Shown here piece after piece: positions 4,444 to 62,629 of a DNA stretch of 64,000 bases. Numbering within the stretch: position 1 is the first letter of the stretch; every line of letters begins with the position of its first letter. Below the pieces are notes generated by a model. That model did not search any database. It was not told the origin of the DNA and saw nothing but the letters and a program-made list of their open reading frames with translations. The DNA lies in contig CAITYL010000021.1 of assembly GCA_903896595.1 (NCBI GenBank), positions 852 through 64,851 of the forward strand. The letters are read 5' to 3'. This DNA comes from an uncultured Lentisphaerota bacterium. Lineage in GTDB: Bacteria; Verrucomicrobiota; Lentisphaeria; Oligosphaerales; CAITYL01. The translations under genes and the position numbers were made by a program.

Positions 4444-4522
4444 AAGCGATTCCGTGAACGTCAGTCATCCCTATTTTCGAGATATCTTGACATATGCCGA
4501 TATATCTCGATCTATCCCGACC

Positions 4523-5303: not shown

Positions 5304-6203
5304 TTATTTGCCTCCGTACAGGGTGGTTACCGGTTGAGTGGTTGGGTGGTTGAGGGGTTGGGCGGGTGTTGGTTGAGGGGTTGAGGGGTTGGGCGGTTGA
5401 GGAGTTGACGGTGGCAGGGTGACGGCGGCGGCGTCGCGAAAGGCGGTGGTCATGCTTTTGCAGTACTCGGCGAGCCCGACGACATCCGCGCCGAGATTTA
5501 GGAACCGAAACCCCTGGGCCAGCAGTTCTTTGACGTTGCCGGGGCCCGACACGGTGCCGGCCACCTTGCCGTGCGCCGTCGCCGCTTCAACAACCCGCTG
5601 GCGCGCCGCCAGCAGCTGCGGGTGATCCCATTGGCCGGGGGCGCCGATGGCGTGGCTGAAGTCGCCGGGACCGAAGAAGATGACGTCAATGCCCGGCAGC
5701 GCGGCAATGGCGTCCAGCTCGGCCAGCGGTTCGGGATCTTCGATCTGCACCACCACGAACCGCTGCTCGTTGGCCTGGCGCAGGTACTCGCGGAACTCGA
5801 TTTCGCAATAAGCGCCGTCGGCGTTGCCGCCGTCCACCGGGCGCCGGCCGACGGGGTGGAACCGGGTCATGCGCACCACCGCCTGCGCATCGGCCAGGCT
5901 CATGACGTGCGGCACCATGATGCCGGCGGCATCCAGCTCCAGCGGCCGCACATGGTCGCTGTAACTGCCGCGCGGCACCCGGACCATGACGTCCACGTTT
6001 TGGCTCTTGGCCGCCCAAATGCAGGCCTCCAGCGGCGCGTAATCATTGGCGACATGCTCCTGGTCCAGCCACAGGCAGTCGCAGCCGCACATGGCCGCGA
6101 TCTCCGCCGCCCGCGCATCCGCCAAATTCATCTTGAAGGTCAATGCCGCGCCACCCGCCCGCAGCTTCGCCAATACCCGACTCATTCGCATCTGCATCTT
6201 CAT
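5304..6203 (-). CDS. HpcH/HpaI family 2-keto-3-deoxy-sugar-acid aldolase with a Pro/Thr/Gln-rich C-terminal tail
   Basis: FKMNLADARAAEIAAMCGCDCLWLDQEH ... VRVP ... VQIEDPEP ... IDVIFFGPGDFS match the HpcH/HpaI aldolase pattern. AAGGAG lies just upstream of ATG 6203 (alternative 6197 or 6233). The last ~40 aa (PPSTPQPPNPSTPQPTPAQPLNHPTTQP) are low complexity. Confidence 0.8.
   Translation of the reverse strand: MKMQMRMSRVLAKLRAGGAALTFKMNLADARAAEIAAMCGCDCLWLDQEHVANDYAPLEACIWAAKSQNVDVMVRVPRGSYSDHVRPLELDAAGIMVPHVMSLADAQAVVRMTRFHPVGRRPVDGGNADGAYCEIEFREYLRQANEQRFVVVQIEDPEPLAELDAIAALPGIDVIFFGPGDFSHAIGAPGQWDHPQLLAARQRVVEAATAHGKVAGTVSGPGNVKELLAQGFRFLNLGADVVGLAEYCKSMTTAFRDAAAVTLPPSTPQPPNPSTPQPTPAQPLNHPTTQPVTTLYGGK
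5331..5410. repeat. G-rich imperfect tandem repeat (unit about GGTTGAGGGGTTGGGCGG) inside the 3' end of the aldolase gene
   Basis: ggttgagtggttgggtggttgaggggttgggcgggtgttggttgaggggttgaggggttgggcggttgaggagttgacgg on the plus strand. Encodes the PSTPQP tail on the minus strand. Confidence 0.8.
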
Positions 6204-6293
6204 TGTCTCCTTTTTGCCATCATTGAAAACCATGTGGGGCTCTGCCCCAGGCCCCGCTCAAGGACCCAGTTCCTTGAGAATCTTTGATATCCG

Positions 6294-10002: not shown

Positions 10003-10151
10003 TTCCAATCACACTTCAAATTGATTCCAAAATTAACCGTAATGATCGCAGAGATCGCAAAGATAAAACAATCTAAAAATGAGCAATTGATCTTTGTGTT
10101 CTTTGCGTTCTTTGTGGTAGAATAAAGAATCAATTTGAACTTTAATTGGAA
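10003..10151. repeat. AT-rich ~150-bp imperfect palindrome with CGCAAAG-type periodic words
   Basis: Outer arms ttccaatcacacttcaaattgattc / gaatcaatttgaactttaattggaa. Inner arms gatcgcagagatcgcaaagat / atctttgtgttctttgcgttctttgtgg. Confidence 0.7.
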
Positions 10152-12178: not shown

Positions 12179-12281
12179 AGGACCATTGGGACCATTAAGA
12201 CTCTTGAGACCCTTATGACGCCGGCGGAAACCACCGCCAGTCCCAAGGGTCCTAATGGTCCCAAGAGTCCCAATGGTCCTA
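12179..12281. repeat. 9-nt periodic word palindrome, GGACC/GGTCC type, copy 1
   Basis: ggaccattg ggaccatta agactcttg agaccctta - tgacgccggcggaaaccaccgccagt - cccaagggt cctaatggt cccaagagt cccaatggt cc. Reverse complement is about 90 percent identical by eye to 28526-28630. Confidence 0.85.
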
Positions 12282-14750: not shown

Positions 14751-14796
14751 GTGTCCGACGGGTCTGACGCGTCTGACCTGTCCGACCCGTCTGACA
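14751..14796. repeat. 9-nt periodic word array, GTCYGAC type (single arm)
   Basis: gtgtccgac gggtctgac gcgtctgac ctgtccgac ccgtctgac. Lies between the PEP-CTERM stop (14720) and the pseudopilin start (14845). Confidence 0.85.
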
Positions 14797-28525: not shown

Positions 28526-28630
28526 AGGACCATTAGGACTCTTGGGACCATTGGGACACTTGGGACTGGCGGTGGTTTCCGCCGGCGTCCTAATGGTCCC
28601 AAGAGTCTTAATGGTCCCAAGGGTCCTTTG
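28526..28630. repeat. 9-nt periodic word palindrome, GGACC/GGTCC type, copy 2 (inverted)
   Basis: aggaccattaggactcttgggaccattgggacacttgggactggcggtggtttccgccggcgtcctaatggtcccaagagtcttaatggtcccaagggtcc. Confidence 0.85.
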
Positions 28631-39035: not shown

Positions 39036-39109
39036 CAGAAGATCGCGAAGACCGCAAAGAACGTACTTACACACACAATTCAAACCTTCGCGACCTTTGC
39101 TTCCTTCTG
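39036..39109. repeat. imperfect palindrome of CGCGAAG/GCAAAG periodic words
   Basis: cagaagatcgcgaagaccgcaaagaacg ... ccttcgcgacctttgcttccttctg. The outer 6 bp pair perfectly. The inner words are similar but in shuffled order. Confidence 0.6.
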
Positions 39110-39970: not shown

Positions 39971-40053
39971 CTCTGTGGACTTGGTGGACCCTGTGGACCC
40001 TGTGGACGTTTGGGCGCCGTCCACCAGGTCCACCCAGTCCACCGGGTCCACGC
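39971..40053. repeat. 9-nt periodic word palindrome, GTGGAC/GTCCAC type
   Basis: ctct gtggacttg gtggaccct gtggaccct gtggac gtttgggcgcc gtccaccag gtccaccca gtccaccgg gtccacgcc. Lies between the PEP-CTERM stop (40073) and the pseudopilin start (39919). Confidence 0.9.
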
Positions 40054-44136: not shown

Positions 44137-44181
44137 ATGCCAGCCAGACCCCAGCGGTGGTTGGCGGTGGAGGGAGCCGCG

Positions 44182-45597
44182 ATGCGCCTGTTAGACCGTG
44201 AACCTGAATTGGCACGGCTCAACGCCCTGTGCCGGCGGCCGGAAGGCGGTTTGGCGGTGCTGTGGGGCCGGCGCCGGATCGGCAAATCACGGTTGCTGGC
44301 GGAATGGGTGGCGGCGCACGACGGCATCCACTTTGTCGCCGATCAGTCAACCGCCACCATGCAGATCCGTTACTTTGCCCATGCGTGCAGCCGTAAATTT
44401 CCCGGGTTTGACGAGGTTGACTATCCCGACTGGATCATCGTTCTTCGCCGCCTCGCCGAGGCGGCGCAACGCGCTGGCTGGCGCGGTCCGTTGGTCTTTG
44501 ACGAGTTACCCTATCTGGCCGCGGCGTATCCCCCCATCGGCAGCATTTTGCAGCGCTGGATCGACACCGACGCGCGCCAGGCCGGGCTGGTGACCGCGGT
44601 GTGCGGTTCAAGCCAGCGCATGATGCAGGGACTGGTGCTCGACGCCAACGCGCCATTATTAGGCCGCGCGGCCGAAAGCTTTACCCTCAGAGAGCTGCCG
44701 GCAGCTTGGTTGCTCAAGGCGTTTCCCACGGTTGACGCAGTGGAAGCCTGCAAGCTTCATGCCCTTTTAGGCGGTATCCCGTACTACTGGGAACTCGGGG
44801 CGGCCAGCGGTCTGAGCCAGGCCGATGACCTGGCCGACCGTCTCGTGATCGACCCGCAGGGACCGCTCCATACCGAACCCCAGCGTTTATTGCGCGAAGA
44901 GTCGCCCCCGGCCATTGCGGTTCAGCCGATCTTGGAAGCCATTGGCTTGGGGGCGCACCGGCTCTCCGAAATTGCAGGAAAAATCGGCCAACCCGCCACC
45001 GCTTTGGGGCATCCGCTAAAACGGCTGCTGGAAATGGGGCTCATCGCCAAGGATATCCCCTTTGGCGAAACCGAAAAAAACTCCAAACGTTCCTTGTATG
45101 CCATACAGGATCCCTTGTGCCGTCTCTGGTTTACGGTCATCGCCCCCAACCGCGGCGCTCTGCTCCAGATGCCCCAACCGGCACGCCGGAAACTGTGGAG
45201 TCACGCCGCTCCGTCGCTGTATGCCCAAAACTGGGAGGCTCTCTGTCGTCAGGCGGTGCCCCGCCTGGCCGCGCTGGCCATTCCCCAATTCCCGGATATG
45301 GAATGGGGAGTGGCGTCCCGTTGGTGGCAGGGCAATGCGCCGGAATGGGACATTGTCGCCCAATCACTTGATGGCCGGAGTATTTTGCTCGGCGAGGCGA
45401 AATGGAGCACCACCGGGACGTCACAGGTCAAAAAAGCCATTGCCGCTTTGCAAACCCGCCCGTTGCCACCGCTTCCCGGCATTCATGAGAAAATCGTCAA
45501 ACGGGCAGTGTTTGTGCCCAAAAGCCACGGAAACCATCACGCGCCAGAGGGCATGGCCATCATTGATGCCGACGACATCATGAAATGCTTAATCTGA
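44182..45597 (+). CDS. AAA-type ATPase (archaeal-ATPase-like) with C-terminal DUF234 / PD-(D/E)xK-like domain
   Basis: MRLLDREPELARLN...LAVLWGRRRIGKSRLL (Walker A), LVFDELPYL (Walker B). The C-terminal EWDIVAQSLDGRSILLGEAKWS is nuclease-fold-like. GGAGGGAG lies upstream of ATG 44182. Confidence 0.8.
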   Translation: MRLLDREPELARLNALCRRPEGGLAVLWGRRRIGKSRLLAEWVAAHDGIHFVADQSTATMQIRYFAHACSRKFPGFDEVDYPDWIIVLRRLAEAAQRAGWRGPLVFDELPYLAAAYPPIGSILQRWIDTDARQAGLVTAVCGSSQRMMQGLVLDANAPLLGRAAESFTLRELPAAWLLKAFPTVDAVEACKLHALLGGIPYYWELGAASGLSQADDLADRLVIDPQGPLHTEPQRLLREESPPAIAVQPILEAIGLGAHRLSEIAGKIGQPATALGHPLKRLLEMGLIAKDIPFGETEKNSKRSLYAIQDPLCRLWFTVIAPNRGALLQMPQPARRKLWSHAAPSLYAQNWEALCRQAVPRLAALAIPQFPDMEWGVASRWWQGNAPEWDIVAQSLDGRSILLGEAKWSTTGTSQVKKAIAALQTRPLPPLPGIHEKIVKRAVFVPKSHGNHHAPEGMAIIDADDIMKCLI

Positions 45598-45617
45598 CAG
45601 GAATTTTGATTTCAGGC

Positions 45618-46367
45618 TCAGGAACGAAGTTTCCGCAAATGCTCCGGCATCGACTCATATAGGGCGCGCACTAGGCGATCCATTTCGGTTGACGGATTGG
45701 CGGGTAACGGAGTCGCGGCGCCGTGATGGTGTTGGCGCACTCTTGCGGCGTGTTCCACGGCCGTGGGCCACTTGGAGAAAAAGGAGCCGATGGCTTCCCT
45801 TGCCGTTTCTTTGGTGGTTGAATAGTCTCTGCCCAAAACCTTTTTGAGAGCCGCTTTTGCAGCATCCCCATTGTGCAGGTCGCTACGCGTGGTGTATGCC
45901 AAATGAAGCAACAGCCAGAATTCGAAGCATGGCGACGAGTGCGCCAATTTTACCTTCTTGGCAGTGGCCGATTGCTGGACGTTATTCCAGATGCCTTCCC
46001 GCACTGCCACGTCGGTGTCTATCACGGCCCAAACATGGTCAAACATTGATGGTTCATCGATGCCAAGCCGACCTTTTCTGGCTTTGTATGCTTGCGCTGT
46101 AGCTTCGCGTGCGGCAGTTGCGATTACATGTCGCGGATGTGACGCATCCCCTGGTATAACTTTTATCCACACAGTGGACAATTGAAGATCTTGCAGCAGC
46201 AAATCAAAATAGACCGGCTCGGTGACTGTTCCTTCAGTTACAATCAGGAACGTGTCACCAAGTTTTGCCAACGCAGAGCCCACCGCTTTGGCGCGCGCCT
46301 TGCGTTCCAAACTTGCCGCTTTCGGCGCTTGCCACCAGTTGGGATCGTATGAAGCGGCCTCACTCAT
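45618..46367 (-). CDS. RloB-like protein (AbiLii-like partner of the upstream ATPase)
   Basis: DTFLIVTEGTVTEPVYFDLL...FDHVWAVIDTD...VKLAHSSPCFEFWLLLHL is the RloB-domain pattern (TEG..E...D.D...NPCFE.W). Start ATG 46367 overlaps the ATPase stop by 8 nt. Confidence 0.75.
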   Translation of the reverse strand: MSEAASYDPNWWQAPKAASLERKARAKAVGSALAKLGDTFLIVTEGTVTEPVYFDLLLQDLQLSTVWIKVIPGDASHPRHVIATAAREATAQAYKARKGRLGIDEPSMFDHVWAVIDTDVAVREGIWNNVQQSATAKKVKLAHSSPCFEFWLLLHLAYTTRSDLHNGDAAKAALKKVLGRDYSTTKETAREAIGSFFSKWPTAVEHAARVRQHHHGAATPLPANPSTEMDRLVRALYESMPEHLRKLRS

Positions 46368-47721
46368 CACGGCCAGCCTTTTCGGACGATGCGGCCGTTT
46401 CTCTGGTTGGGAAAGAGCCAAGCAAACCATCCGGCACAAACGGCACTGCGCCGTAGCGGCCGGAGAGGTAACCACGCACCAGCGACTCCCCCTTCCGTGG
46501 CTGATAATCCGTCAGGGGATAGAGATGGCCTGCGCCTTCGGTGTCTTTGTCGGTGAACCAAATTTGGTCACGGCGCAACAACGTTGGATCCAGCAATAGC
46601 GGATTGTGCGTGGTAAAAATAATCTGCGCGCCTTTGGGATTCTCCGTGTTACTAAAAATCAGCCGCAGCAATTCCCGCACCATGAGCGGGTGCATGCTGG
46701 CTTCCAGTTCGTCTATGCAGATGGTATGGCCGTTGCTCAAGATGTCCAGCCACGGCCCCGCCAACCCAAAGAAGCGATGCGTTCCAGCGGATTCATTTTT
46801 CCACGGCAACGGTAGATCAGCTTCGTTGCTACCACGATGTATCAATTCTGGTTCAAACTGGCGATTATGGAGGATTTTCTCCCGCAACTCCGGCGAAAAA
46901 GGAAGGACGGTTGTGATTTTTTCAAGTGTATCCAGTTCCTTCTGTGTGCGGTATTTTTCAACAGCGCGCACTCCCGTTACCCCCAAATCGGCATGGCGTA
47001 ACATCCTTAAAATCTGGTCGTGCAATGGCGACTTTTTTTGAATTTGCTCAAGGGTAATCTCTGCCCCTAATTGGCCTCGCGGACTCAAGTCGAGGAATAA
47101 CAACTGCTCTTTAAACCACCGGAAAACAGGCTCCAGTTCGGATCGCCCTTCTGCAATGGCTTTCGACAAAAAGAGCACATTGCTCAATGTGCGTCTTTCA
47201 TCATCAGTGTTACGTCGAAAGCCACTGGGGCGTTCGGGCGACCACGCATAGTTCCCGGAATCGGAATTCCAATCCCGGCAGAACCACAGCTGTTCTTTCG
47301 CCTTGGGGAAGGCACGTAAAGACTCATGCCAAATCCGTTCCCGTGTCGCGGCTACGCGGTACTCAAACCGGATGCCATCGGCCACAAAGACCACCGCGAA
47401 TGCGGTTGGTACTTCCTCTTGACCGGAACACAGCACAAAAGGGTCAATTTGCTGAATTAGTTCTTTGGGATCGGTCGTCTTGGCCGATGTTCCCACCAGC
47501 TCAGCCAAAGCCTTTAATGCTTCAATCACCGTTGTCTTTCCGCTGGCATTGGCACCATAGAGCGCCACACCCTTGACCCAGCGCTTGCCGGTCAGCCCTG
47601 GCAGATCGTCCGTGGTAATGCAGTTGTCCGGTAGCGTCTTGTCGTGATTGCTCGCCGCCAGATTCAGTGTCTGCCGTTCACGGAAAGAACGAAAATTGGA
47701 AACTGAAAACTGAATAAGCAT
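46360..47721 (-). CDS. AAA_21 / ABC-like ATPase (AbiLi / RloA-like)
   Basis: MLIQFSVSNFRSFRE..., Walker A GANASGKTT, signature-like ESAGTHRFF, Walker B ICIDELEASMHP, H-loop FTTHNP. Markedly lower GC than the flanking genes. Confidence 0.8.
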   Translation of the reverse strand: MLIQFSVSNFRSFRERQTLNLAASNHDKTLPDNCITTDDLPGLTGKRWVKGVALYGANASGKTTVIEALKALAELVGTSAKTTDPKELIQQIDPFVLCSGQEEVPTAFAVVFVADGIRFEYRVAATRERIWHESLRAFPKAKEQLWFCRDWNSDSGNYAWSPERPSGFRRNTDDERRTLSNVLFLSKAIAEGRSELEPVFRWFKEQLLFLDLSPRGQLGAEITLEQIQKKSPLHDQILRMLRHADLGVTGVRAVEKYRTQKELDTLEKITTVLPFSPELREKILHNRQFEPELIHRGSNEADLPLPWKNESAGTHRFFGLAGPWLDILSNGHTICIDELEASMHPLMVRELLRLIFSNTENPKGAQIIFTTHNPLLLDPTLLRRDQIWFTDKDTEGAGHLYPLTDYQPRKGESLVRGYLSGRYGAVPFVPDGLLGSFPTRETAASSEKAGRDE

Positions 47722-47932: not shown

Positions 47933-50164
47933 TTACAACAGCGACTGCGGGTCGATGTCGACGTGGATGTCCACGTCCTCGTGGCGGAAGGCGGTGGCGC
48001 CAGTGACCAGGGGGCGCAGGGTCTGGCCGAGGCGGAGAATGCTGCCGCCGCGGATCATCAACTGGTAGCGGTACTGGTTGCGCACCTTGGCGATGGGCGC
48101 CGGCATGGGGCCGAACAGCTCGACGCCCGGTTCGAGCAGGGGCTTGATCTTGTTGACAAACGCCTCGGCGGCGGCGCTGGCGACCATTTCCGAACTGGCG
48201 CGGAAATGCACGGCCGCCATGTGCGCCGCCGGCGGGAACTTGAGCACCTGGCGCGTGGGGAGTTCCTCGCGGTAAAAGGCGTCATAGTCCTGGCGCATGG
48301 CGAATTGGAGCACCGGGTGGAACGGGGTGTAGGTCTGGACGATGACGCGGCCAGGCAGGTCGCCGCGGCCGGCGCGGCCGGCCACCTGCACCAGCAGTTG
48401 AAAGGTGCGCTCGCCGGCGCGGAAGTCGGGCAGGTGCAGCCCCATGTCGGCGGCCATGATCCCGACCAGGGTGACTTTGGGGAAGTGCAACCCTTTGGCG
48501 ATCATCTGGGTGCCGATGAGGATCTGGATCTTGCCGGCGCGGAAGGCATTAAGGGTGTCGCGGTGGGCGTGCTTGGCGGTCATGCTGTCCGAATCCATGC
48601 GGGCGACCACCGCCTTGGGAAAGAGTTTGGCGGCGATGGTCTCGATCTTTTCGGTGCCGACCCCGGTATAGCGGATCTCGGGGTCGTGGCACTGGGGGCA
48701 GGCCTCGGGCGCCCGGATGGTGGCGCCGCACAGGTGGCAGGCCAGGTGCGCCGCCTGTTTGTGATAGGTGTACGCCGCGGAGCAATGCTCGCAAGTGGCG
48801 ACAAATCCGCATTTCTGGCAGATCATCTGGGTGGCAAAGCCGCGACGGTTGAGGAAAAGGATGGTCTGCTCACCGTTGTCGAGCCGTTCGCGGATGAGCT
48901 GCACCAGCCGGCGGGAAAAGAGCGGGGCGCCGCCTTTTTGGGAGGCCTCGGCGCGCTGGTCCACCAGTTCCATGGTCGGCATCAGCTGATTGTCCACGCG
49001 GATGGAGAGCCGGGCGAGTTCGTACTTGCCGAGCTGGCAGTTATAGAACGATTCCAGCGACGGCGTGGCGGTGCCGAGCACGACGGTGGCGCCCTCGAAC
49101 TTGCCGCGCACCACCGCCACGTCGCGGGCATTGTAGCGGGGGGCCTCGTCCTGTTTGTAGGTGGTCTCATGTTCCTCGTCGACCACGACCAGGCCAAGTT
49201 TCTGGAAGGGGGCGAACAGCGCGGAGCGGGCACCGACGGCGATCTGGGCGCGGCCATTGCGAATGCGGGTCCATTCATCGAAGCGTTCGCCATCGCTCAG
49301 ATGACTGTGGAGCACGCTGATGCGGTCGCCGAAGCGGCTGCGGAAGCGTTCCACGGTCTGGGGGGTGAGTGCGATTTCGGGCACCAAGACGATGGCCTCG
49401 CGCCCCTGCTCCAGGCAGCGGGAAATGGCCTGCAAGTACACCTCGGTCTTGCCGGAGCCGGTGACGCCGTGCAGCAGGATGACCCCCGGTCCGCGCCGGT
49501 CCAGCGCGGCGGTGATGCGGGCCAGGGCAACCGTCTGTTCCGGGGTCAGCTCCAGCGGCCGGGTCGGCAGCACGATATCGCCGGCACTGGGATCGCGGTC
49601 CACCACGCGGTGTTCGGTGAGCACGATGCCGGCCTTGACCAGGGTGTTCAGGATGGCCGGGGTGGCCTCGGCCTCGCGGGTAAGCCAACCGGCTTCGCAG
49701 ACGCCCCCGTGCCGGGCCAGCACCTGCAAGACGGCGGCGCGCTTTTTCGCCCGCGTTCCGCATTGCTCCAGTTCGGCGGCCACGTCCACACCGGGGCGCA
49801 ACCATGCGAAGAGGTGCTGGCGCGGCTTCATCTTGCCGTGGCGCACCACGGCGGGCAGCATGGCGCGCACGGCCTGTTCATGGGCGCAACAGTAATAATC
49901 GGCGATCCAGCGGGCCAGGACGATCAGGTTCTCCGGGATCTGCTCCTGCTCGCCCTCGATGCGCATCACTTCCTTGAGATCGGGCCAGGCGGATTTCTCC
50001 GCCACGCCCACCACATAGCCGATCCGGCTGGACTTGCCGAACGGCACCCAGACCCGGCAGCCGATCCGCAACTGGCCGCGCAACCGTTCCGGAATGCGGT
50101 AGTCGAACTCGCGGTCCAGCGCCAGATTAATCACCACTTTGGCTATGCTCGGCAAATCGGCCAT
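47933..50164 (-). CDS. priA: primosomal protein N' (replication restart helicase PriA)
   Basis: 743 aa. N-terminal 3'-DNA-binding domain (FDYRIPE...VWVPFG), helicase motif I HGVTGSGKTEVY, DEEH box, Cys-rich insertion CQKCG...CEHCS...CHLCG...CPQC. Confidence 0.95.
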   Translation of the reverse strand: MADLPSIAKVVINLALDREFDYRIPERLRGQLRIGCRVWVPFGKSSRIGYVVGVAEKSAWPDLKEVMRIEGEQEQIPENLIVLARWIADYYCCAHEQAVRAMLPAVVRHGKMKPRQHLFAWLRPGVDVAAELEQCGTRAKKRAAVLQVLARHGGVCEAGWLTREAEATPAILNTLVKAGIVLTEHRVVDRDPSAGDIVLPTRPLELTPEQTVALARITAALDRRGPGVILLHGVTGSGKTEVYLQAISRCLEQGREAIVLVPEIALTPQTVERFRSRFGDRISVLHSHLSDGERFDEWTRIRNGRAQIAVGARSALFAPFQKLGLVVVDEEHETTYKQDEAPRYNARDVAVVRGKFEGATVVLGTATPSLESFYNCQLGKYELARLSIRVDNQLMPTMELVDQRAEASQKGGAPLFSRRLVQLIRERLDNGEQTILFLNRRGFATQMICQKCGFVATCEHCSAAYTYHKQAAHLACHLCGATIRAPEACPQCHDPEIRYTGVGTEKIETIAAKLFPKAVVARMDSDSMTAKHAHRDTLNAFRAGKIQILIGTQMIAKGLHFPKVTLVGIMAADMGLHLPDFRAGERTFQLLVQVAGRAGRGDLPGRVIVQTYTPFHPVLQFAMRQDYDAFYREELPTRQVLKFPPAAHMAAVHFRASSEMVASAAAEAFVNKIKPLLEPGVELFGPMPAPIAKVRNQYRYQLMIRGGSILRLGQTLRPLVTGATAFRHEDVDIHVDIDPQSLL

Positions 50165-50596
50165 TCAGCGCCTACCTTCCGGCCACGGGTTCAAGAGTTC
50201 AACCCCGGTTTCTTGGACATCCGCGGTGTTGCGGGTGACCAGGATCAGGTGATGGACCCGGGCGGTGGCGGCCAGCAGGCTGTCCAGCACGGGCCGGGGC
50301 TGGCCGGCATTTTCAGCCGTCCCGGTGAGGCTTCCCCACTGCATCAGCGTGTCTTCGTTCAGCGGCAGGATGCGGCCGGCAAAACGTTGCCGTACCTCGA
50401 CGTCGAGCCAGGCCAGGAGCCGGCGCTGGTGCGCGCCGTTCTCCAGTTTGCAGATGCCTTTTTGCAGTTCACCGAGGGTGATGACGGAGAGGTACAGGCG
50501 GTCTTCTGGAATGCTTTCAATCCAGGCCGCCACCGCCGGGCACGGCCGGTTTTTGACCAGTTCCGAAATCACGCAGGTATCCAGCAGGTAGTTCAC
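50165..50596 (-). CDS. vapC: PIN-domain toxin VapC (FitB-type)
   Basis: 143 aa. LLDTCVISEL ... SVITLGELQ ... LILVTRNTADV carry the PIN acidic residues. The stop codon directly abuts the priA ATG. Confidence 0.85.
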   Translation of the reverse strand: MNYLLDTCVISELVKNRPCPAVAAWIESIPEDRLYLSVITLGELQKGICKLENGAHQRRLLAWLDVEVRQRFAGRILPLNEDTLMQWGSLTGTAENAGQPRPVLDSLLAATARVHHLILVTRNTADVQETGVELLNPWPEGRR

Positions 50597-50844
50597 AGAT
50601 CCACCTGGCGCCCGGGGTCACGGGACCGCGTGAGATCCAGCTTGACGCCGCGGAGTGGCGACCGGCGGAAGAACGCCGCCAGGCCGCCCCGGGGCTGGGT
50701 GACGCGGCGAAACTCCGCGGCGGCCACCACCACCACCGCGTCCTTGCCGTGGCGGGTGACCCATTGCGGCCCCGTCGTCAACGCCCGGTCCACCACCGCA
50801 CTGAAACGGTTCTTGGCATCCTGCAAAGCCCATGCTGGTTCCAT
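50593..50844 (-). CDS. vapB: Phd/YefM-type antitoxin (VapB)
   Basis: MEPAWALQDAKNRFSAVVDRALTTGPQWVTRHGKDAVVVVAAAEF is the Phd/YefM N-terminal fold. AAGGGAG lies 8 nt upstream of ATG 50844. 4-nt ATGA overlap with vapC. Confidence 0.8.
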   Translation of the reverse strand: MEPAWALQDAKNRFSAVVDRALTTGPQWVTRHGKDAVVVVAAAEFRRVTQPRGGLAAFFRRSPLRGVKLDLTRSRDPGRQVDL

Positions 50845-50863
50845 GATGCGCACTCCCTTTTCT

Positions 50864-52728: not shown

Positions 52729-52822
52729 CCCGCAGAGGCGCGAAGGCGCAGAGAAACCACCAAGTCAAAATAGTGCCATGATGCCTGACCTGTTTTTCTC
52801 CGCGCCTCCGCGCCTCTGCGGG
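52729..52822. repeat. 28-bp inverted repeat of GCAGAGGCG/CGAAGGCG periodic words
   Basis: cccgcagaggcgcgaaggcgcagagaaa (52729-52756) versus tttctccgcgcctccgcgcctctgcggg (52795-52822). 26 of 28 positions are complementary. Confidence 0.85.
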
Positions 52823-57424: not shown

Positions 57425-57589
57425 GGAACATTCAACATCGAACATTCAACGTCGAATAATCCTTTTGATTCAGTCGAAACACGTTTAAAGCACCTTCGAT
57501 TTATCTTCGTGCTCTTCGTGGCTTCGTGGTGAATCCAAATGCTTACGTGCTACAAGGTACTAGACTAACGGGAAATCACGCCTCACGTT

Positions 57590-58701: not shown

Positions 58702-59832
58702 TTACCGGCGGCCCGCGGACTGCCGGTCCAGGACGTCCCGGTAAAGCTCCACGTAGTCCCCGTTGATCAGGTTCCAGTCGTAGCCCTTGGCGGTTTCCAG
58801 CGCCCGCTCGGACATCGCCTGCGCCTGGGCCGGGTCATCCAGCAGGGCGCTCGCCTGGCAGGCAAGTTCGGTGCAGTCACCCGGTGCCGCCAGCAGTCCG
58901 GTTTGTCCGGGGCGGACCAGCTCGGGGAGGCCCCCCACGCGGAAAGCGACCACCGGCACCCCGGCCGCCATGGCTTCCAAGGTGACCACGGAGAGCGCCT
59001 CGGAGCGCGAGCTGACCAGCAACAGGGCGGCGTGACGGAACCAGCGCGCCTTGTCCACCCCCAGTTGGAGGCCGAGGAAATCGACGGCATCCGTGATCCC
59101 CAGGGTGTCGGCCAGCCGGCGCGGCTCGCGGTCCGGCAGTCCCGCTTCTGCCCATTTTTCGGGGAATTCCTGCCCCATCAGGGCCAGGCGCATCTCCGGG
59201 TGGCGGGCATGCACCTGGGCAAAGGTCTCCAGCGCCAAGTCCGGCCCTTTGACAGGCAGGAGCCGGCCGGCGAACAGGACGTACGGGGCGGCGGCGGGGC
59301 GCTCCCGGCTGGCCTCCCCCGTAAACTCCGCGAGATCGGCGCCATTGTGGATGACCCGCAATTTGGCGGACGCCAGCCCCAGGTTGGTGAGCAGGTCGCC
59401 CTGGGCCGCCGAGATGGCAACGCCCCACGCGGCACGGTGGACGGTCCGGCGAATGCAAAAGCGCCCGAAACGGGTGACCTGACGGGCGTCGCCACCGTGC
59501 GAGGTGAAGACGAAGGGCACACCCGTAAGGCGGGAGAACAGGGCGGCGGCCCAACCTGCCGGTATGACGCCGTGGGCATGGACAAGGTCGAACCGGTGCC
59601 GCCGGTGATGGCACAACAACCCCCACAGCATGCCGTTCCAATTAAAGCCCGCCTTATGGTATTGCAATTGCCGATACGGTTGCGGTGCGGGCGGGGGTGC
59701 GTTCCGCTTCCGCCGGGTCAAGACCCAGGCCTGGTGTCCGGCCTGGACCTGTTTCCGCGCCAGCGTGTCGATCACGACCTCCATGCCGCCCATGTCTGGG
59801 AGGAAGGACGGGGTCAAGTGGCAGATCCGCAT
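58702..59832 (-). CDS. glycosyltransferase family 4 (GT-B, group 1)
   Basis: MRICHLTPSFLPDMGGMEV... and the C-terminal SRSEALSVVTLEAMAAGVPVVAFRVGGLPELV (E-x7-E region). ATG 59832 overlaps the stop of the upstream gene by 1 nt. Confidence 0.85.
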   Translation of the reverse strand: MRICHLTPSFLPDMGGMEVVIDTLARKQVQAGHQAWVLTRRKRNAPPPAPQPYRQLQYHKAGFNWNGMLWGLLCHHRRHRFDLVHAHGVIPAGWAAALFSRLTGVPFVFTSHGGDARQVTRFGRFCIRRTVHRAAWGVAISAAQGDLLTNLGLASAKLRVIHNGADLAEFTGEASRERPAAAPYVLFAGRLLPVKGPDLALETFAQVHARHPEMRLALMGQEFPEKWAEAGLPDREPRRLADTLGITDAVDFLGLQLGVDKARWFRHAALLLVSSRSEALSVVTLEAMAAGVPVVAFRVGGLPELVRPGQTGLLAAPGDCTELACQASALLDDPAQAQAMSERALETAKGYDWNLINGDYVELYRDVLDRQSAGRR

Positions 59833-61400
59833 CACTGGGCCACCGTCCAGGCGAGGATGTTGACCCCGAGCGCCAGCGCATCGGTGGGGTCGGGGCCAAG
59901 GCAGTACGGACAGGCCGCCAATTCCCAGCCGCAGGCCAGCCCCCAGGGCGAGTACAGCACCACCGGCTGGCCGTTGAGGGACAGGCACAGCAGCCGCGGC
60001 GGCACTTTGCCGCTGGCGCCGAGCGCCTTGGCCAAGGCGGGCCGGGGTTGAACCGCCGTCACGTTGTTGGGGTAATGGAACAATGGATGGCTGGCTGGGA
60101 GCGGGGTCAACTCGGCCTCGGGCAGCACCGCCTTGAGTTCACGGCGGAACGCCCGGTCAAACCCCGCACGGCCGCAGCAGGCTTCGGCCAGCAACAGGCC
60201 GCCACTGCGCAGATACCGGCGCAAGCCGGCGCGCTCGGCCGCGGTGAACGTGAAGTCATTATGGCCGGTAAGGTAAAGGAACGGCACATCAAAGAGACGG
60301 GGCGAATCCAACGCCAGGTCGTCAAAGGCGAAACGGACCGGCGTCTTGGTCTGTTCGTGAAAGCTGTTGAGGAGCATGGACAACCCGGCATCGCGAGTCC
60401 GCCACAAGCCGCCGTAGCGGGCCTGGGCGATCAGAAATTTTCCGGACTTGTCGGGGGACGCGTCAAGAAAGGCGAGCGCCTTGGAGAGCGGCACGGCGGC
60501 CTCGCGCTCGGCCGTGATATAGGCCATCAGATTGGCCCCCAAACTGCGGGCGGTGGGAATCGTGTACCCCAGACAGTGATGATGGTCCGAATCCGGCAGG
60601 TTGTCCCAGCCGCAACTGACGTCCCAGCGGAACAGGAAAACGGCGGTGCGGCAGCCGACGTCGACGCCGATGATGCCCGGATCACCGTCGTGGGCGCCGG
60701 CCTGGCGGGCGCCGTCGCGGAACTGGATCTGGTTGATATCCAAAAAACTGCGGAACAAGGGGTGGTCGGGCGGCAGACGGTACGGCGGGCGCTCGGGCAC
60801 GAGCTGATTCATCTCGCGCAGCGCCGACTCAACAAAGGCGCGCCGGCCGCAGCAGGCGTCAAAGACAATCGTGCCGCCCTGCAGCAAATAGGCGCGAAGA
60901 CGCTGGCGGACCGCCGGCGGAAACTCAAAGGCGTCATGCCCGGTGCGGTAGAGAACCGGCACCTCTTTGGCGCTGGCCGGCACCTGGTCCTGGGGCAGAT
61001 TGATGGCGCTGAAGTGGACCTTGAGATCCTGGGCCATCCAGCGCAGCAGATTGTCGGCGTCGCCGGGATTGGTGGCCCAATCGGCGCGGCTGGCGGTGGC
61101 GATCTTGGCGATCAGCACCGGCGGCCGCGGCGGGTTCTTCTTTTCGGTCCGGCGCAATGGCACGGCGGGCAGCGGCAGGGGCGGCAGCCCTTCGGCCCCG
61201 GAAAACTGGGCGGGCCGGGCCGGCGGCGGCTTGGGAACGCAGGTGAACTTGGTTTCCTGCTGGCTGGCATCGCTGTCCAGCCCAAGCCCGTCCAACAAGA
61301 CGGGCTCGCCCCCCTGGACCGGCACGGACAACGCCAGGACGGCCGCCAGAACAGCGAAAGCCACCGCGCCGCCAACCCGTGTAAAAGAAAGTGTAGTCAC
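59832..61400 (-). CDS. secreted protein with two tandem DUF4159 domains
   Basis: Two copies of the pattern ...PVLYRTGHDAFEFPPAVRQRLRAYLLQGGTIVFDACCGRRAF... and ...PFLYLTGHNDFTFTAAERAGLRRYLRSGGLLLAEACCGRAGFDRAFRRE.... Start assigned to GTG at 61400 (VTTLSFTRVGGAVAFAVLAAVLALSVPVQG, signal-peptide-like). The ORF-track extension to 61922 runs through repeat arrays. Confidence 0.7.
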   Translation of the reverse strand: MTTLSFTRVGGAVAFAVLAAVLALSVPVQGGEPVLLDGLGLDSDASQQETKFTCVPKPPPARPAQFSGAEGLPPLPLPAVPLRRTEKKNPPRPPVLIAKIATASRADWATNPGDADNLLRWMAQDLKVHFSAINLPQDQVPASAKEVPVLYRTGHDAFEFPPAVRQRLRAYLLQGGTIVFDACCGRRAFVESALREMNQLVPERPPYRLPPDHPLFRSFLDINQIQFRDGARQAGAHDGDPGIIGVDVGCRTAVFLFRWDVSCGWDNLPDSDHHHCLGYTIPTARSLGANLMAYITAEREAAVPLSKALAFLDASPDKSGKFLIAQARYGGLWRTRDAGLSMLLNSFHEQTKTPVRFAFDDLALDSPRLFDVPFLYLTGHNDFTFTAAERAGLRRYLRSGGLLLAEACCGRAGFDRAFRRELKAVLPEAELTPLPASHPLFHYPNNVTAVQPRPALAKALGASGKVPPRLLCLSLNGQPVVLYSPWGLACGWELAACPYCLGPDPTDALALGVNILAWTVAQ

Positions 61401-61506
61401 CCGAATAATATAGTAGGGCGCGTGGCCGGGCACGCGGCACACGATCTTGAGGGAGGTGCTGGGTACGGAGGTGCTGGGGACGGGTACACGGTGCAGGGGA
61501 CGGGTA

Positions 61507-61658
61507 CACGGAATCCGCACGGACAAGCACGGACCTACACGGACGAGCACGGACACACACGGACACACACGGACACACACGGACGGTGGCCGCACGGCCG
61601 GGCCCGCGCCAATTCCAGCCCGTCCGTGTGTGTCCGTGTAGGTCCGTGCAGGTCCGTC
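61507..61658. repeat. 10-nt periodic word palindrome, CACGGAC/GTCCGTG type
   Basis: Left arm ...cgcacggac aagcacggac ctacacggac gagcacggac acacacggac acacacggac acacacggac gg. Right arm cgtccgtgtgtgtccgtgtaggtccgtgcaggtccgtcgg. Preceded by a tandem ggggacgggtacacgg x2 (61476-61511). Confidence 0.9.
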
Positions 61659-61933
61659 GGGGTTTGTGGCCGGGGGCGCCCCCCTCGCCGTACAGGCGGT
61701 CGTTGGCGGCGGGGTGTAGCCGGCGGGGCGGGCAATGGCGTCGCTCGGGCAGCGCACCAGGCCTGTCTTCTTCTCGGAATAAGCGCCGAGCAGGGGGCGC
61801 TGGGGACGGGTACCATGGATCCATTGCGATCTTGGCGTGCTTGGCGAGAGAACGTTTTGGGGAGCGGCGGGAGGCACGCGCCAATCGGGAGATTGGCGTT
61901 CCCAGAAGAAGGCTTCCACCATGGCGGTGATCC

Positions 61934-62485
61934 TCAGCGCGACGGCAGGATGACGGTGATGATTTCCATGGGCACGGCGCCGGTGTTGGTGGCGCGGTGC
62001 AACTGGCCGGCCTTGATGTACCAGGCGTCGCCGGGACGCAGGTCCCAGCGGCCGACCTCCTGGATCTCCAGGCGCATGGCGTCGCCGGAAACCAGCCAGC
62101 CGGCCAGGTCATAGGGATGTTTCTCCCACTCGCTGTCGGTCTCCGTGGGCTGGATGACCTCGTGCAGCATCTCGACCTTGATGTCGTCCCGGACCGGCAG
62201 CAGGAACTTGTAGGTCCGGTGCTGGTCCTCGACCTTGCGCATGCGGTCGGCGGTGAACACCTGACCGGCGGCGCCGTCGGCGCCCCCGGCGAAGAAGGAG
62301 GCGAAGTCCACCCCCAATGCTTCCAGCAGCTTGTTGACGGTGGCCAGGGTCGGGCTGGTCTTGCCCGTCTCGATGGCCGACAGACTGGAGGCGGCCACGC
62401 CGGAGCGACGGCTCAGTTCCCGCAGGTTGATGTCCAGGCGGTGGCGCAGCAGTTTCAGTTGGCGGCCAAATTCTTCCGGACTCAT
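61934..62485 (-). CDS. XRE-family HTH plus cupin-domain transcriptional regulator
   Basis: LKLLRHRLDINLRELSRRSGVAASSLSAIETGKTSPTLATVNKLLEALGV (HTH_3) followed by a cupin beta-barrel (GDAWYIKAGQLHRATNTG). Confidence 0.85.
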   Translation of the reverse strand: MSPEEFGRQLKLLRHRLDINLRELSRRSGVAASSLSAIETGKTSPTLATVNKLLEALGVDFASFFAGGADGAAGQVFTADRMRKVEDQHRTYKFLLPVRDDIKVEMLHEVIQPTETDSEWEKHPYDLAGWLVSGDAMRLEIQEVGRWDLRPGDAWYIKAGQLHRATNTGAVPMEIITVILPSR

Positions 62486-62629
62486 CTGCCCGTGCTCCTT
62501 GTCGGTGCGAAACCGGCCCGATGGCCGATTTTGGCCGTACTATATCGCGTTGGTTGTTGCGCCGGTGCTCGATTGCGGTCGACCGCGGTCGATTGCAGCC
62601 GACCGCAATCGAAAGGGGTCTCGAACTTT

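Follow-up and report, generated by a model that had tools for sequence, protein, structure and literature searches.

The element described here lies in a 64-kb stretch of DNA (64,000 nucleotides, hereafter the window), within a 533-nt spacer (61401–61933) that separates the stop codon of an HTH-cupin gene from the GTG start codon of a DUF4159 gene. Both genes are on the minus strand: the upstream neighbor, identified by Pfam scan, encodes an HTH_3/Cupin_2 regulator (61934–62485), and the downstream neighbor encodes a secreted DUF4159 protein (59832–61400) whose GTG start at 61400 is followed by the signal peptide MTTLSFTRVGGAVAFAVLAAVLALSVPVQG. Public gene calls extend the DUF4159 open-reading frame through the spacer to 61922, an over-extension of 174 codons. 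GC content at the three codon positions is 0.63/0.67/0.74 in the spacer compared with 0.66/0.43/0.90 in the neighboring gene, and since the spacer is without a codon-position signature, it is non-coding. The intergenic position proposed in an earlier note on this DNA was thus upheld, with the DUF4159 gene really starting at 61400. The same note had raised the possibility of an assembly artefact, and this check was passed, as two assemblies made from different samples carry the 5-kb region around the element at 99.98–100% identity. The locus was found in DNA metagenomes only and in no RNA runs. The sole relative found encodes an HTH-cupin protein 87% identical to the regulator; synteny ends exactly at the stop codon of this gene, that is, at the element, and neither the array nor the operon is present beside the relative's regulator. 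A search for an empty orthologous site found none, the sole relative losing synteny at the element.

The main element (61518–61661, plus strand) was resolved by TRF and a repeat search into two arms and a loop. In the left arm (61518–61584), CACGGAC recurs seven times with an exact 10-nt period, the cores being separated in order by the spacers AAG, CTA, GAG, ACA, ACA, and ACA, the last three units being a perfect triplication of CACGGACACA. The loop (61585–61621) is 37 nt long, G+C-rich, and without an open-reading frame, and contains a GTGGCCGnnnGGCCGGG box similar to sequences at 61416–61439 and 61666–61679. The right arm (61622–61661), shorter than the left, is composed of three GTCCGTGnnn units and one degenerate GTCCGTC, also at a 10-nt period. 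The array and its inverted counterpart are therefore as first described, except that the left arm holds seven perfect cores and not the "about eight" copies originally counted. The expectation that complementary arms would give a long hairpin was borne out by an inverted repeat of 38 nt with 87% complementarity and by the predicted RNA fold of the minus strand over the element (−136.7 kcal/mol, z = −5.0). Degenerate outer repeats of 15 and 20 nt (GGAGGTGCTGGGKAC twice and GGTGCWGGGGACGGGTACAC twice; 61452–61511, plus strand), found in the same searches, include the fragments ACACGG and GGGAC and probably represent earlier units that have since decayed. The CACGGAC element is present in a single copy within the 64-kb window. 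Generic miRNA-hairpin models of Rfam gave sub-threshold matches on 61546–61654.

Sister arrays within the window

Matching to TRF consensus sequences missed most of the hairpins because their spacers vary, and a phased-core detector was used instead, with a phased run defined as at least three units at a period of 7–11 nt. Nine phased 6-mer runs were detected in the window, whereas 100 dinucleotide shuffles averaged 0.13 and never exceeded 3. The other sites reported in the earlier note all proved real, although one of them (57425–57545) is made of two different direct arrays in an operon spacer, (GAACATTCAACRTC)x2 and (CTTCGTG)x3 by TRF, and forms no clean palindrome. The claim that each family has a different core did not survive, as the cores fall into two groups: a GGAC type (CACGGAC, GTGGAC, GGGAC/GGACC, and GTCYGAC) and a CRCRRAG type (CGCAAAG, CGCGAAG, CGCAGAG, and CACGAAG).

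Among the GGAC-type arrays, the element at 39971–40053 has the form (GTGGACnnn)x4, an 11-nt loop, and (GTCCACnnn)x4 at a 9-nt period, is situated within an operon, with a PEP-CTERM gene on one side and a pseudopilin gene on the other, and is followed on the plus strand by a run of six T. A GGACC/GGGAC-type element whose units recur every 9 nt occupies a divergent promoter region (12179–12281, plus strand), and a second copy of it lies in reverse orientation at 28526–28630 (minus strand). As reverse complements, the two are 93% identical, spacers and loop included, demonstrating that fold-backs of this kind are copied as a unit. No target-site duplication was identified, and there is no obvious direct duplication at the ends of these two copies. 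A single array of five GTCYGAC units at a 9-nt period (14751–14796, plus strand; TRF) is self-complementary because its core is nearly palindromic. TRF also delineated three hairpins of CRCRRAG type: one with the units CGCAGAGG, CGCGAAGG, and CGCAGAGA at an 8-nt period in a divergent region (52729–52822), one in which GATCGCARA units face TCTTTGYGT units (10040–10115), and one in which CGCGAAG and CGCAAAG cores face their complements (39036–39109). The suggestion that a period near one helical turn would place all cores on one face of the DNA holds for the 10-nt family only; in the sister families the units recur every 7, 8, or 9 nt, so "one face of B-DNA" is not a general rule.

A CACGGAC fold-back family across phyla

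Exact matches to CACGGACnnnCACGGACnnnCACGGAC were found at 120 or more genome loci in about 17 phyla, where by our own arithmetic fewer than about 2 would be expected by chance in 596 Gb. Among these loci, the order CACGGAC arm, loop, GTCCGTG arm was observed 40 times and the opposite order once. The family was defined here as at least three CACGGAC cores at 10-nt phase, a loop, and at least three GTCCGTG cores at 10-nt phase, in that polarity, and the main element, with 7 + 3(4) cores, falls within it. Across the family loci the cores are perfect and the loops unrelated, and the spacers of the two arms are complementary at 42% of positions compared with 33% by shuffle. The cores are conserved as DNA sequence, in contrast to the drifting spacers and loops, and the combination of conserved cores with free 3-nt spacers at exact phase points to a putative factor that recognizes the core and not to simple base pairing.

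Viral contigs were also scanned. Three phased CACGGAC units gave 36 matches, with no partner genes detectable by HMMs, and four GTGGAC units at a 9-nt period gave at least 119 matches, with an inverted partner in none of those listed. As 76 of the 119 listed lie in long open frames, the viral GTGGAC matches are consistent with coding three-codon repeats and are uninformative on the hairpin class.

Small genes associated with the arrays

At five of the 120 or more loci, the hairpin lies in frame inside a gene matching TIGR02436 and TIGR04258. Relatives of this four-helix-bundle-suffix (TIGR04258) gene were collected from metagenomes, and in the best 80 of the 576, the linker has the form (CAnnGACnnn)n, loop, (GTCnnTGnnn)n in every case (80/80), with a length divisible by 3 in all 80 and a stop codon in none. 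The dominant core in these linkers is CACGGAC/GTCCGTG, and cores occur in all three reading frames (25/41/50), indicating that conservation operates at the nucleic-acid level. Fold potential is retained (median z −3.2). An AlphaFold model shows the linker as a loop of low confidence (pLDDT below 50) flanked by confidently predicted helices, and a fold search with the model returned a sole and weak match, the S23-family structure 2rld (E 0.25–0.55, probability about 0.99). The sequence architecture of the linker is identical to that of the window element; in those genes, however, it is read in frame and yields a disordered loop, whereas no remnants of coding sequence flank the window copy. No four-helix-bundle-suffix gene was found in the viral contigs scanned.

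Two further kinds of genes accompany the fold-backs. GxxExxY genes, of the PD-(D/E)XK nuclease fold, were found in six contexts inside or among CACGGAC hairpins, in one of them (L084) between two arms and in L204 and four further contexts among complete hairpin units. A classical four-helix-bundle gene lies between (TAGCTSA)n and (TSAGCTA)n arrays at one locus (L015) and at 9 of 9 homologous loci, which span at least four distinct gene contexts. Single-seed jackhmmer searches of the fetched loci with the classical four-helix-bundle or GxxExxY genes recovered the seeds only. These are the same two kinds of genes that occupy the intervening sequences (IVS) of 23S rRNA. The association could also run in the reverse direction, with the small genes targeting pre-existing hairpins. 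Within the 64-kb window, Pfam scans and HMM searches detected no four-helix-bundle, GxxExxY, RAYT, or other transposase partner gene. The link to four-helix-bundle and GxxExxY genes was absent from the earlier note.

Comparison with known repeat systems

The statement that the arrays belong to no catalogued family held up after a database search, in which Rfam 15 at the gathering score gave 0 matches in the window and no rRNA, and a literature search found no description of them. Published precedents do exist in Xanthomonas GGGAATC array pairs (PMC4692102) and in 23S rRNA IVS (PMC4990558). IVS are known in Coxiella, Leptospira, Brucella, and others, and carry an S23p four-helix-bundle ORF between terminal inverted repeats (PMC4990558). 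RNase III excises them from the 23S rRNA. Like the window element, they form a long stem of terminal inverted repeats around a loop, which in IVS may hold a PF05635 gene; both IVS and the fold-back family have a scattered distribution that looks horizontally transferred, IVS have long been suspected of being selfish, and at the loci studied in this analysis arms of the same build enclose or are interspersed with four-helix-bundle and GxxExxY genes. Unlike IVS, the window element sits between protein genes rather than in a 23S rRNA helix (25 or 45), its loop is empty, and its arms are tandem 7-nt cores at fixed phase, a construction not described in the IVS literature found.

The earlier note had also set the elements apart from REP and MITE repeats, a distinction that needs revision in that they behave as dispersed repeats of the REP/MITE type, with two copies in the window 93% identical in opposite orientation. 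REP sequences are imperfect palindromes of 20–40 nt with a conserved GTAG or CGTC head (PMC3733652). The fold-backs resemble REP, BIME, and REPIN elements in being small intergenic palindromes that appear to be dispersed in both orientations (PMC3116915, PMC3337134, PMC3733652), probably non-autonomous, with one small putative "partner" gene flanked by the repeats, and sited between co-directional, convergent, and divergent genes. They differ in having no GTAG/CGTC tag at either end of the window element, in having arms that are phased heptamer arrays of 30–70 nt (40–67 nt in the window) rather than simple palindromes, and in flanking PD-(D/E)XK-fold GxxExxY and four-helix-bundle genes rather than Y1 HUH transposases. 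Pfam scans found no Y1_Tnp or other transposase and no IS among the window genes; a MITE would be expected to show terminal inverted repeats that match a parent IS, together with a target-site duplication. The contrast drawn with CRISPR was sound: CRISPR arrays have direct repeats of 23–50 nt alternating with unique spacers of similar length, whereas here 7-nt units alternate with spacers of 3 nt and one arm is inverted relative to the other.

In Xanthomonas, 70–75 cases of convergent GGGAATC heptamer array pairs capable of forming a stem-loop have been described (Rehm et al. 2015, PMC4692102). These pairs, together with Nostoc GGGGA(C/T)T and cyanobacterial STRR repeats, share with the window element short intergenic tandem units; they are perfect 7-nt tandems interpreted as G-quadruplex formers, whereas the window element has a 7-nt core in a 10-nt frame, free spacers, and no G3 runs. 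In contrast to the fold-back family, a gene link is not reported for the heptamer pairs (PMC4692102).

Like the fold-back family, Rickettsia palindromic elements (RPE) occur both in frame inside protein genes and between genes. RPE are unique-sequence palindromes of about 100–150 nt that are not known outside Rickettsia, and they are not known to have phased-core arrays or a partner gene.

Origin and possible role of the element

The identity of core, phase, and polarity across phyla makes it probable that the element at 61507–61658 is a gene-less ("solo") copy of a cross-phylum fold-back repeat family. The interpretation that fits best is a fold-back repeat of IVS-like or REPIN-like character that carries no gene and has grown at this site by slippage. 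The remaining word-array hairpins of the window share this build and represent sister families, with GGAC-type cores every 9 nt or CRCRRAG-type cores every 8–9 nt. Counting against this reading are the lack of a partner gene and of a second CACGGAC copy in the 64-kb window, and the failure to find an empty orthologous site or a target-site duplication. Under such a scheme, the arrays would lengthen by replication slippage, as the three perfect copies of CACGGACACA suggest here, and the small proteins would recognize the cores, each subunit perhaps binding a single core on folded DNA or RNA. They may also preserve or disseminate the arrays, a role like that of RAYT toward REPINs. Here the element would be a passenger without a dedicated host function. 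If it were transcribed through from the HTH-cupin gene, the hairpin (about −137 kcal/mol) would be a likely RNase III substrate, and a cut there would part the HTH-cupin and DUF4159 transcripts.

That the hairpin is instead a locally evolved RNA signal, such as a terminator, an RNase III site, or an mRNA-stabilizing stem, with the tandem units as a by-product of slippage, seems unlikely. The very stable RNA fold (z = −5.0) is what such a signal would show, co-directional genes flank most elements of the window, a T6 run follows the one at 39971, and RNases are known to target REPs and IVS stems (PMC4990558); yet no terminator-like site or U-tract was found on either strand of 61300–62050, and the 12179 and 52729 elements lie in divergent promoter regions. 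A local origin also fails to explain either the identical core and phase across phyla or the dispersed copies that are 93% identical, and the mismatched spacers weaken the stem, unlike the outcome of selection for pairing.

The reading implied by the earlier note, a phased binding site for a host protein, for instance the HTH-cupin regulator or a nucleoid protein, that coats one face of the duplex and controls the DUF4159/glycosyltransferase operon, would fit the exact 10-nt period, the conserved cores with free spacers, and the placement of the array just 5′ of the operon start and 3′ of the regulator gene. We nevertheless consider this improbable, given that the same core and phase occur beside unrelated genes in about 17 phyla and lie within coding sequence in 80 of 80 of the best four-helix-bundle-suffix genes, that the sister periods of 7–9 nt are not helical, that an array bound as duplex has no need of a fold-back polarity of 40 to 1, and that the 87% identical regulator of the relative has no array or operon adjoining it.

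The invariance of the hairpin in the best 80 four-helix-bundle-suffix relatives and the unusual length of the surrounding 533-nt spacer, with its absent codon signature, could be taken to mean that a gene of this family once stood here and decayed, leaving the element as its linker, with the palindrome kept by self-correction while the coding flanks eroded. This is very unlikely: tblastn of five family members against the window, like hmmsearch, matched the translated array alone, leaving the highly conserved N-terminal domain and the suffix helix unmatched, and the seven perfect cores of the window copy exceed those of most gene-borne copies.

Finally, the notion of a plain simple-sequence repeat that arose through slippage, has an inverted neighbor by chance, and is unrelated to arrays elsewhere accords with the three perfect CACGGACACA units and with the abundance of 5–11-nt repeats in some large genomes (PMC4679880), and is strongly disfavored by the nine arrays observed against 0.13 per window in shuffles, by an inverted partner that is the rule (40 to 1), by the identical core across phyla and inside one gene family, and by variable spacers, because of which the units are not simple copies of each other.

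Beyond the probable assignment of the main element to the fold-back family, we offer a wider and decidedly tentative proposal, which may well prove wrong: the CACGGAC, 9-nt GGAC, and 7–9-nt CRCRRAG/TAGCTSA fold-backs might all be non-autonomous members of one cross-phylum selfish system, whose autonomous partners would be the IVS-type genes (the GxxExxY PD-(D/E)XK nuclease and the Avd-like four-helix bundle), each protein subunit reading a single 7-nt core of the folded DNA or RNA, and the proteins cutting, copying, or homogenizing the arrays. If true, this system would be a REPIN-RAYT analogue made of unrelated proteins, and it would account both for the source of 23S rRNA intervening sequences and for a four-helix-bundle-suffix gene that carries its own site in frame.

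Implications

How 23S rRNA intervening sequences arose has been a puzzle since about 1990, and so has the function of the very large S23p/Avd-like four-helix-bundle and GxxExxY families. A 7-nt core at exact phase, in fold-backs that physically track these genes across phyla, provides a candidate ligand. The existence of this cross-phylum, little-described family also suggests that "junk" palindromes of the REP kind arose independently at least once more. On a practical level, the arrays mislead gene callers, as in the over-extended DUF4159 frame, and they probably break metagenome assemblies too, since most contigs with partner genes are shorter than 2 kb.

Structure and setting of the main element

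The left arm of the main element (61518-61584) consists, on direct reading, of seven perfect CACGGAC cores at a period of exactly 10 nt with the spacers AAG, CTA, GAG, ACA, ACA and ACA, and is followed by a 37-nt loop (61585-61621) and a right arm (61622-61661) carrying three GTCCGTG cores and one GTCCGTC. The earlier note had this layout right but gave about eight CACGGAC copies where there are seven perfect cores. Tandem Repeats Finder placed a 10-nt array of 6.7 copies at 61518-61584 with its complement at 61622-61657, and a repeat search returned five 30-nt in-register copies together with inverted arms, at most 47 nt long, that are 81-89% complementary. Three consecutive CACGGACACA units in the left arm are identical, a signature of recent slippage, and we read this arm as enlarged by that process. 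The minus-strand RNA of 61440-61700 folds at -136.7 kcal/mol (z = -5.0). Two independent assemblies from other samples carry the locus at 99.98-100% identity, which disposes of the concern that it is an assembly artefact.

The repeat search also located a GTGGCCGGG-type box to the left of the arrays (61416-61439), in the loop (61588-61611) and to the right of the right arm (61666-61679). This recurrence suggests that the main element is a composite or nested module resembling those of a Victivallaceae MAG locus (L060:130-950), in which a ~165-nt module recurs several times, each copy joining a 10-nt or 9-nt array to a conserved G+C-rich segment. The cores there differ from copy to copy (CTACGGACGA, CTTGGACGA, CCTATAGGA and GTCCGTG), indicating that the array part varies within one repeat scaffold.

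The element is flanked by two minus-strand genes. One, at 61934-62485, encodes an HTH/cupin regulator; the other encodes a DUF4159 protein, has a GTG start at 61400 and is in a reading frame that remains open up to 61922. Public gene calls place the DUF4159 start at the 61922 end of this frame. GC by codon position across 61401-61922 is 0.63/0.67/0.74, compared to 0.66/0.43/0.90 in the neighbouring gene, and thus shows no coding signature, while a typical signal peptide directly follows the GTG at 61400; this places the main element in a non-coding spacer of 533 nt, in which neither a sigma-70-like promoter nor an intrinsic-terminator-like site was found. In the closest relative available, the HTH-cupin protein is 87% identical and synteny extends to the regulator stop codon (~61950), beyond which the genes are unrelated, so that the main element sits at a rearrangement boundary; an empty site was not found in that relative. 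Upstream of the HTH-cupin gene is a 20-nt tandem, TCGATTGCRGYCGACCGCRR x2.2 (62569-62612), replaced at the matching position of relative L218 by a ~300-nt palindromic insert (L218:1170-1340).

The CACGGAC array in other genomes

An exact scan for three CACGGAC cores at 10-nt phase, using one genome per prokaryotic species, returned at least 120 loci; by our own arithmetic, fewer than ~2 would be expected by chance in 596 Gb, even with G+C at 65%. The 80 titles listed include one archaeon and ~17 phyla: Lentisphaerota, Acidobacteriota, Nitrospirota, Hydrogenedentota, Planctomycetota, Verrucomicrobiota, Kiritimatiellota, Myxococcota, Desulfobacterota, Gemmatimonadota, Armatimonadota, Sumerlaeota, WOR-3, Spirochaetota, Bacteroidota, Pseudomonadota and Actinomycetota. 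With one mismatch per core allowed, 40 neighbouring array pairs ran from a CACGGAC array across a short gap to a GTCCGTG array and one ran in the reverse order, so the polarity of the element is fixed and it forms one unit. Different loci have unrelated loops, and the spacers of one arm are complementary to those of the other at only 42% of positions versus 33% by shuffle; conservation thus falls on the cores, with drift in spacers and loops. This core-only conservation indicates that the 7-mer and its phase are read by something, and that base pairing alone is not the constraint.

Small genes associated with the arrays

TIGR02436 (four-helix bundle) and TIGR04258 (suffix) occur together in one gene in 5 of 120 fetched loci (of at least 120), and in all five genes the two parts are joined in frame by the CACGGAC/GTCCGTG hairpin. 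Among at least 576 metagenomic relatives of these proteins, the linker from the N-domain to the suffix helix consists of (CAnnGACnnn)n, a loop and (GTCnnTGnnn)n in all of the best 80, and it has a length divisible by three in 80/80 and stop codons in 0/80. Core-to-core steps in these linkers are 10 nt in 118/138 cases, and the cores are spread over the three codon phases (25/41/50 and 23/40/58), indicating that the conserved item is DNA or RNA and not a peptide motif. Linker fold potential has a median z of -3.2, with 68% below -2. In an AlphaFold model of one such protein (pLDDT 83.7), the linker is a loop with pLDDT <50 between confident helices; the best structural matches, to the S23-family protein 2rld, were weak. 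An extra array in the CACGGAC orientation was present just 5′ of, or overlapping, the start codon in 17/74 of these genes (L124-L203), and the opposite orientation was seen at only one.

A second family of tiny genes is also physically associated with the arrays. At one fetched locus (L084), a GxxExxY gene (TIGR04256 / PF13366, PD-(D/E)XK fold) lies between the two hairpin arms, and at L204 and four more contexts reached via homologues it lies among tandem complete hairpin units of the form TTAGC-(CACrGACnnn)3, ~90-nt loop, (GTCyGTGnnn)3-GCTAA. At L374:400-1500, near-identical direct copies of one hairpin-unit pair stand on both sides of the GxxExxY gene (H1 H2, gene, H1' H2'), which looks as if the pair had been duplicated on insertion. 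By chance, a classical four-helix-bundle gene was found between (AGCTGAT)n and (ATCAGCT)n at L015, and its homologues had inverted TAGCTSA heptamer arms in 9/9 loci from at least four distinct gene neighbourhoods. Cargo is not limited to these families, since an ordinary TspO/MBR-family membrane protein gene lies between inverted CCTTYGTG and CACMAAGG (CRCRRAG-type) arrays at L097:2127-2736.

Identity of the main element and relation to known repeats

Searches of the 64-kb window found no gene for a four-helix-bundle or GxxExxY protein, a RAYT or any other transposase. When the four-helix-bundle-suffix proteins were compared to it by tblastn and hmmsearch, the translated array alone was matched, which, given how conserved these proteins are, indicates that no coding remnants exist at the main element. 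In our reading, the main element belongs to the CACGGAC fold-back family but carries no gene, and is a passenger in the long spacer.

Functionally, the closest analogy is with REP/REPIN-RAYT, whose defining features are nevertheless absent: the main element has no GTAG/CGTC head and the window no Y1 transposase. Convergent GGGAATC arrays in Xanthomonas provide a published architectural precedent, although, unlike the CACGGAC family, they lack a core-plus-spacer phase and a gene link (PMC4692102). ORFs of 23S rRNA intervening sequences (IVS) encode four-helix-bundle proteins between terminal inverted repeats, and their origin is unexplained (PMC4990558); build and cargo genes are common to IVS and the fold-back family, while location differs. 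The main hairpin gave only sub-threshold, generic miRNA-precursor matches to Rfam and no family matched in the window at gathering score; within an incomplete literature coverage, no publication was found that treats CACGGAC or GTCCGTG as a tandem repeat or palindrome, or associates repeat arms with PF05635, TIGR02436 or GxxExxY genes. The initial impression that no described repeat class is recognisable is consistent with these searches.

The related Avd protein works on the nucleic acid of its own element in diversity-generating retroelements, and by analogy the small proteins would read the cores. The PD-(D/E)XK-fold protein would supply cleavage, and RNase III would act on transcribed stems, as in IVS. 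The small genes may spread the hairpins, or else target them.

Related arrays across the window

A phased-core detector found nine arrays in the window, compared to a mean of 0.13 and a maximum of 3 in 100 dinucleotide-preserving shuffles, and arrays were present on direct check at all the other places listed earlier (10040-10115, 12179-12281, 14751-14796, 28526-28630, 39036-39109, 39971-40053, 52729-52822 and 57425-57545), the last being two direct arrays that make no clean palindrome. The earlier note assigned a different core to each family; there are indeed several, but they are not all distinct, since they sort into a GGAC-type group (CACGGAC at 10 nt; GTGGAC, GGGAC/GGACC and GTCYGAC at 9 nt) and a CRCRRAG-type group (CGCAAAG, CGCGAAG, CGCAGAG and CACGAAG at 8-9 nt). 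The elements occupy gaps between co-directional genes, some within operons, and two (12179 and 52729) are in divergent promoter regions, a placement indicating that they are not specifically gene-end signals. Element 12179 and the reverse complement of element 28526 share 93% identity, spacers and loop included; whole elements have therefore been copied as units within this genome and dispersed like REP/MITE repeats, contrary to the earlier view that the arrays are unlike REP/BIME and MITEs.

Elsewhere, 9-nt GGAC-type hairpins at L027:4599-4694 (AAGGAC x5 facing GTCCTT x5) and L115:3689-3757 (TAGGTCC facing GGACCT) lie a few kb from CACGGAC arrays in the same locus. As L027 is a Thermoanaerobaculia contig with both, GGAC-type families co-occur outside Lentisphaeria.

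Other repeats in the window include a G-rich octamer array (GGTTGAGG, ~10 copies, 5331-5408) at the 3′ end of an HpcH/HpaI aldolase ORF (5304-6233, minus strand), which it may falsely extend, as the Pfam domain does not reach beyond residue 251 of 309. A 20-nt tandem, CGAGATATCTCGACATATCC x2.2 (4478-4520), occupies the 79-nt gap between aldo-keto reductase and SDR genes. A low-GC island (44137-47721; 0.53 versus ~0.63) adjoining priA contains an ATPase_2/DUF234 gene and an AAA_21 (AbiEii-like ATPase) and RloB pair, and resembles a defence-type module. On the minus strand, PIN (VapC-like) toxin and Phd/YefM antitoxin genes (50165-50853) immediately precede priA (47933-50164).
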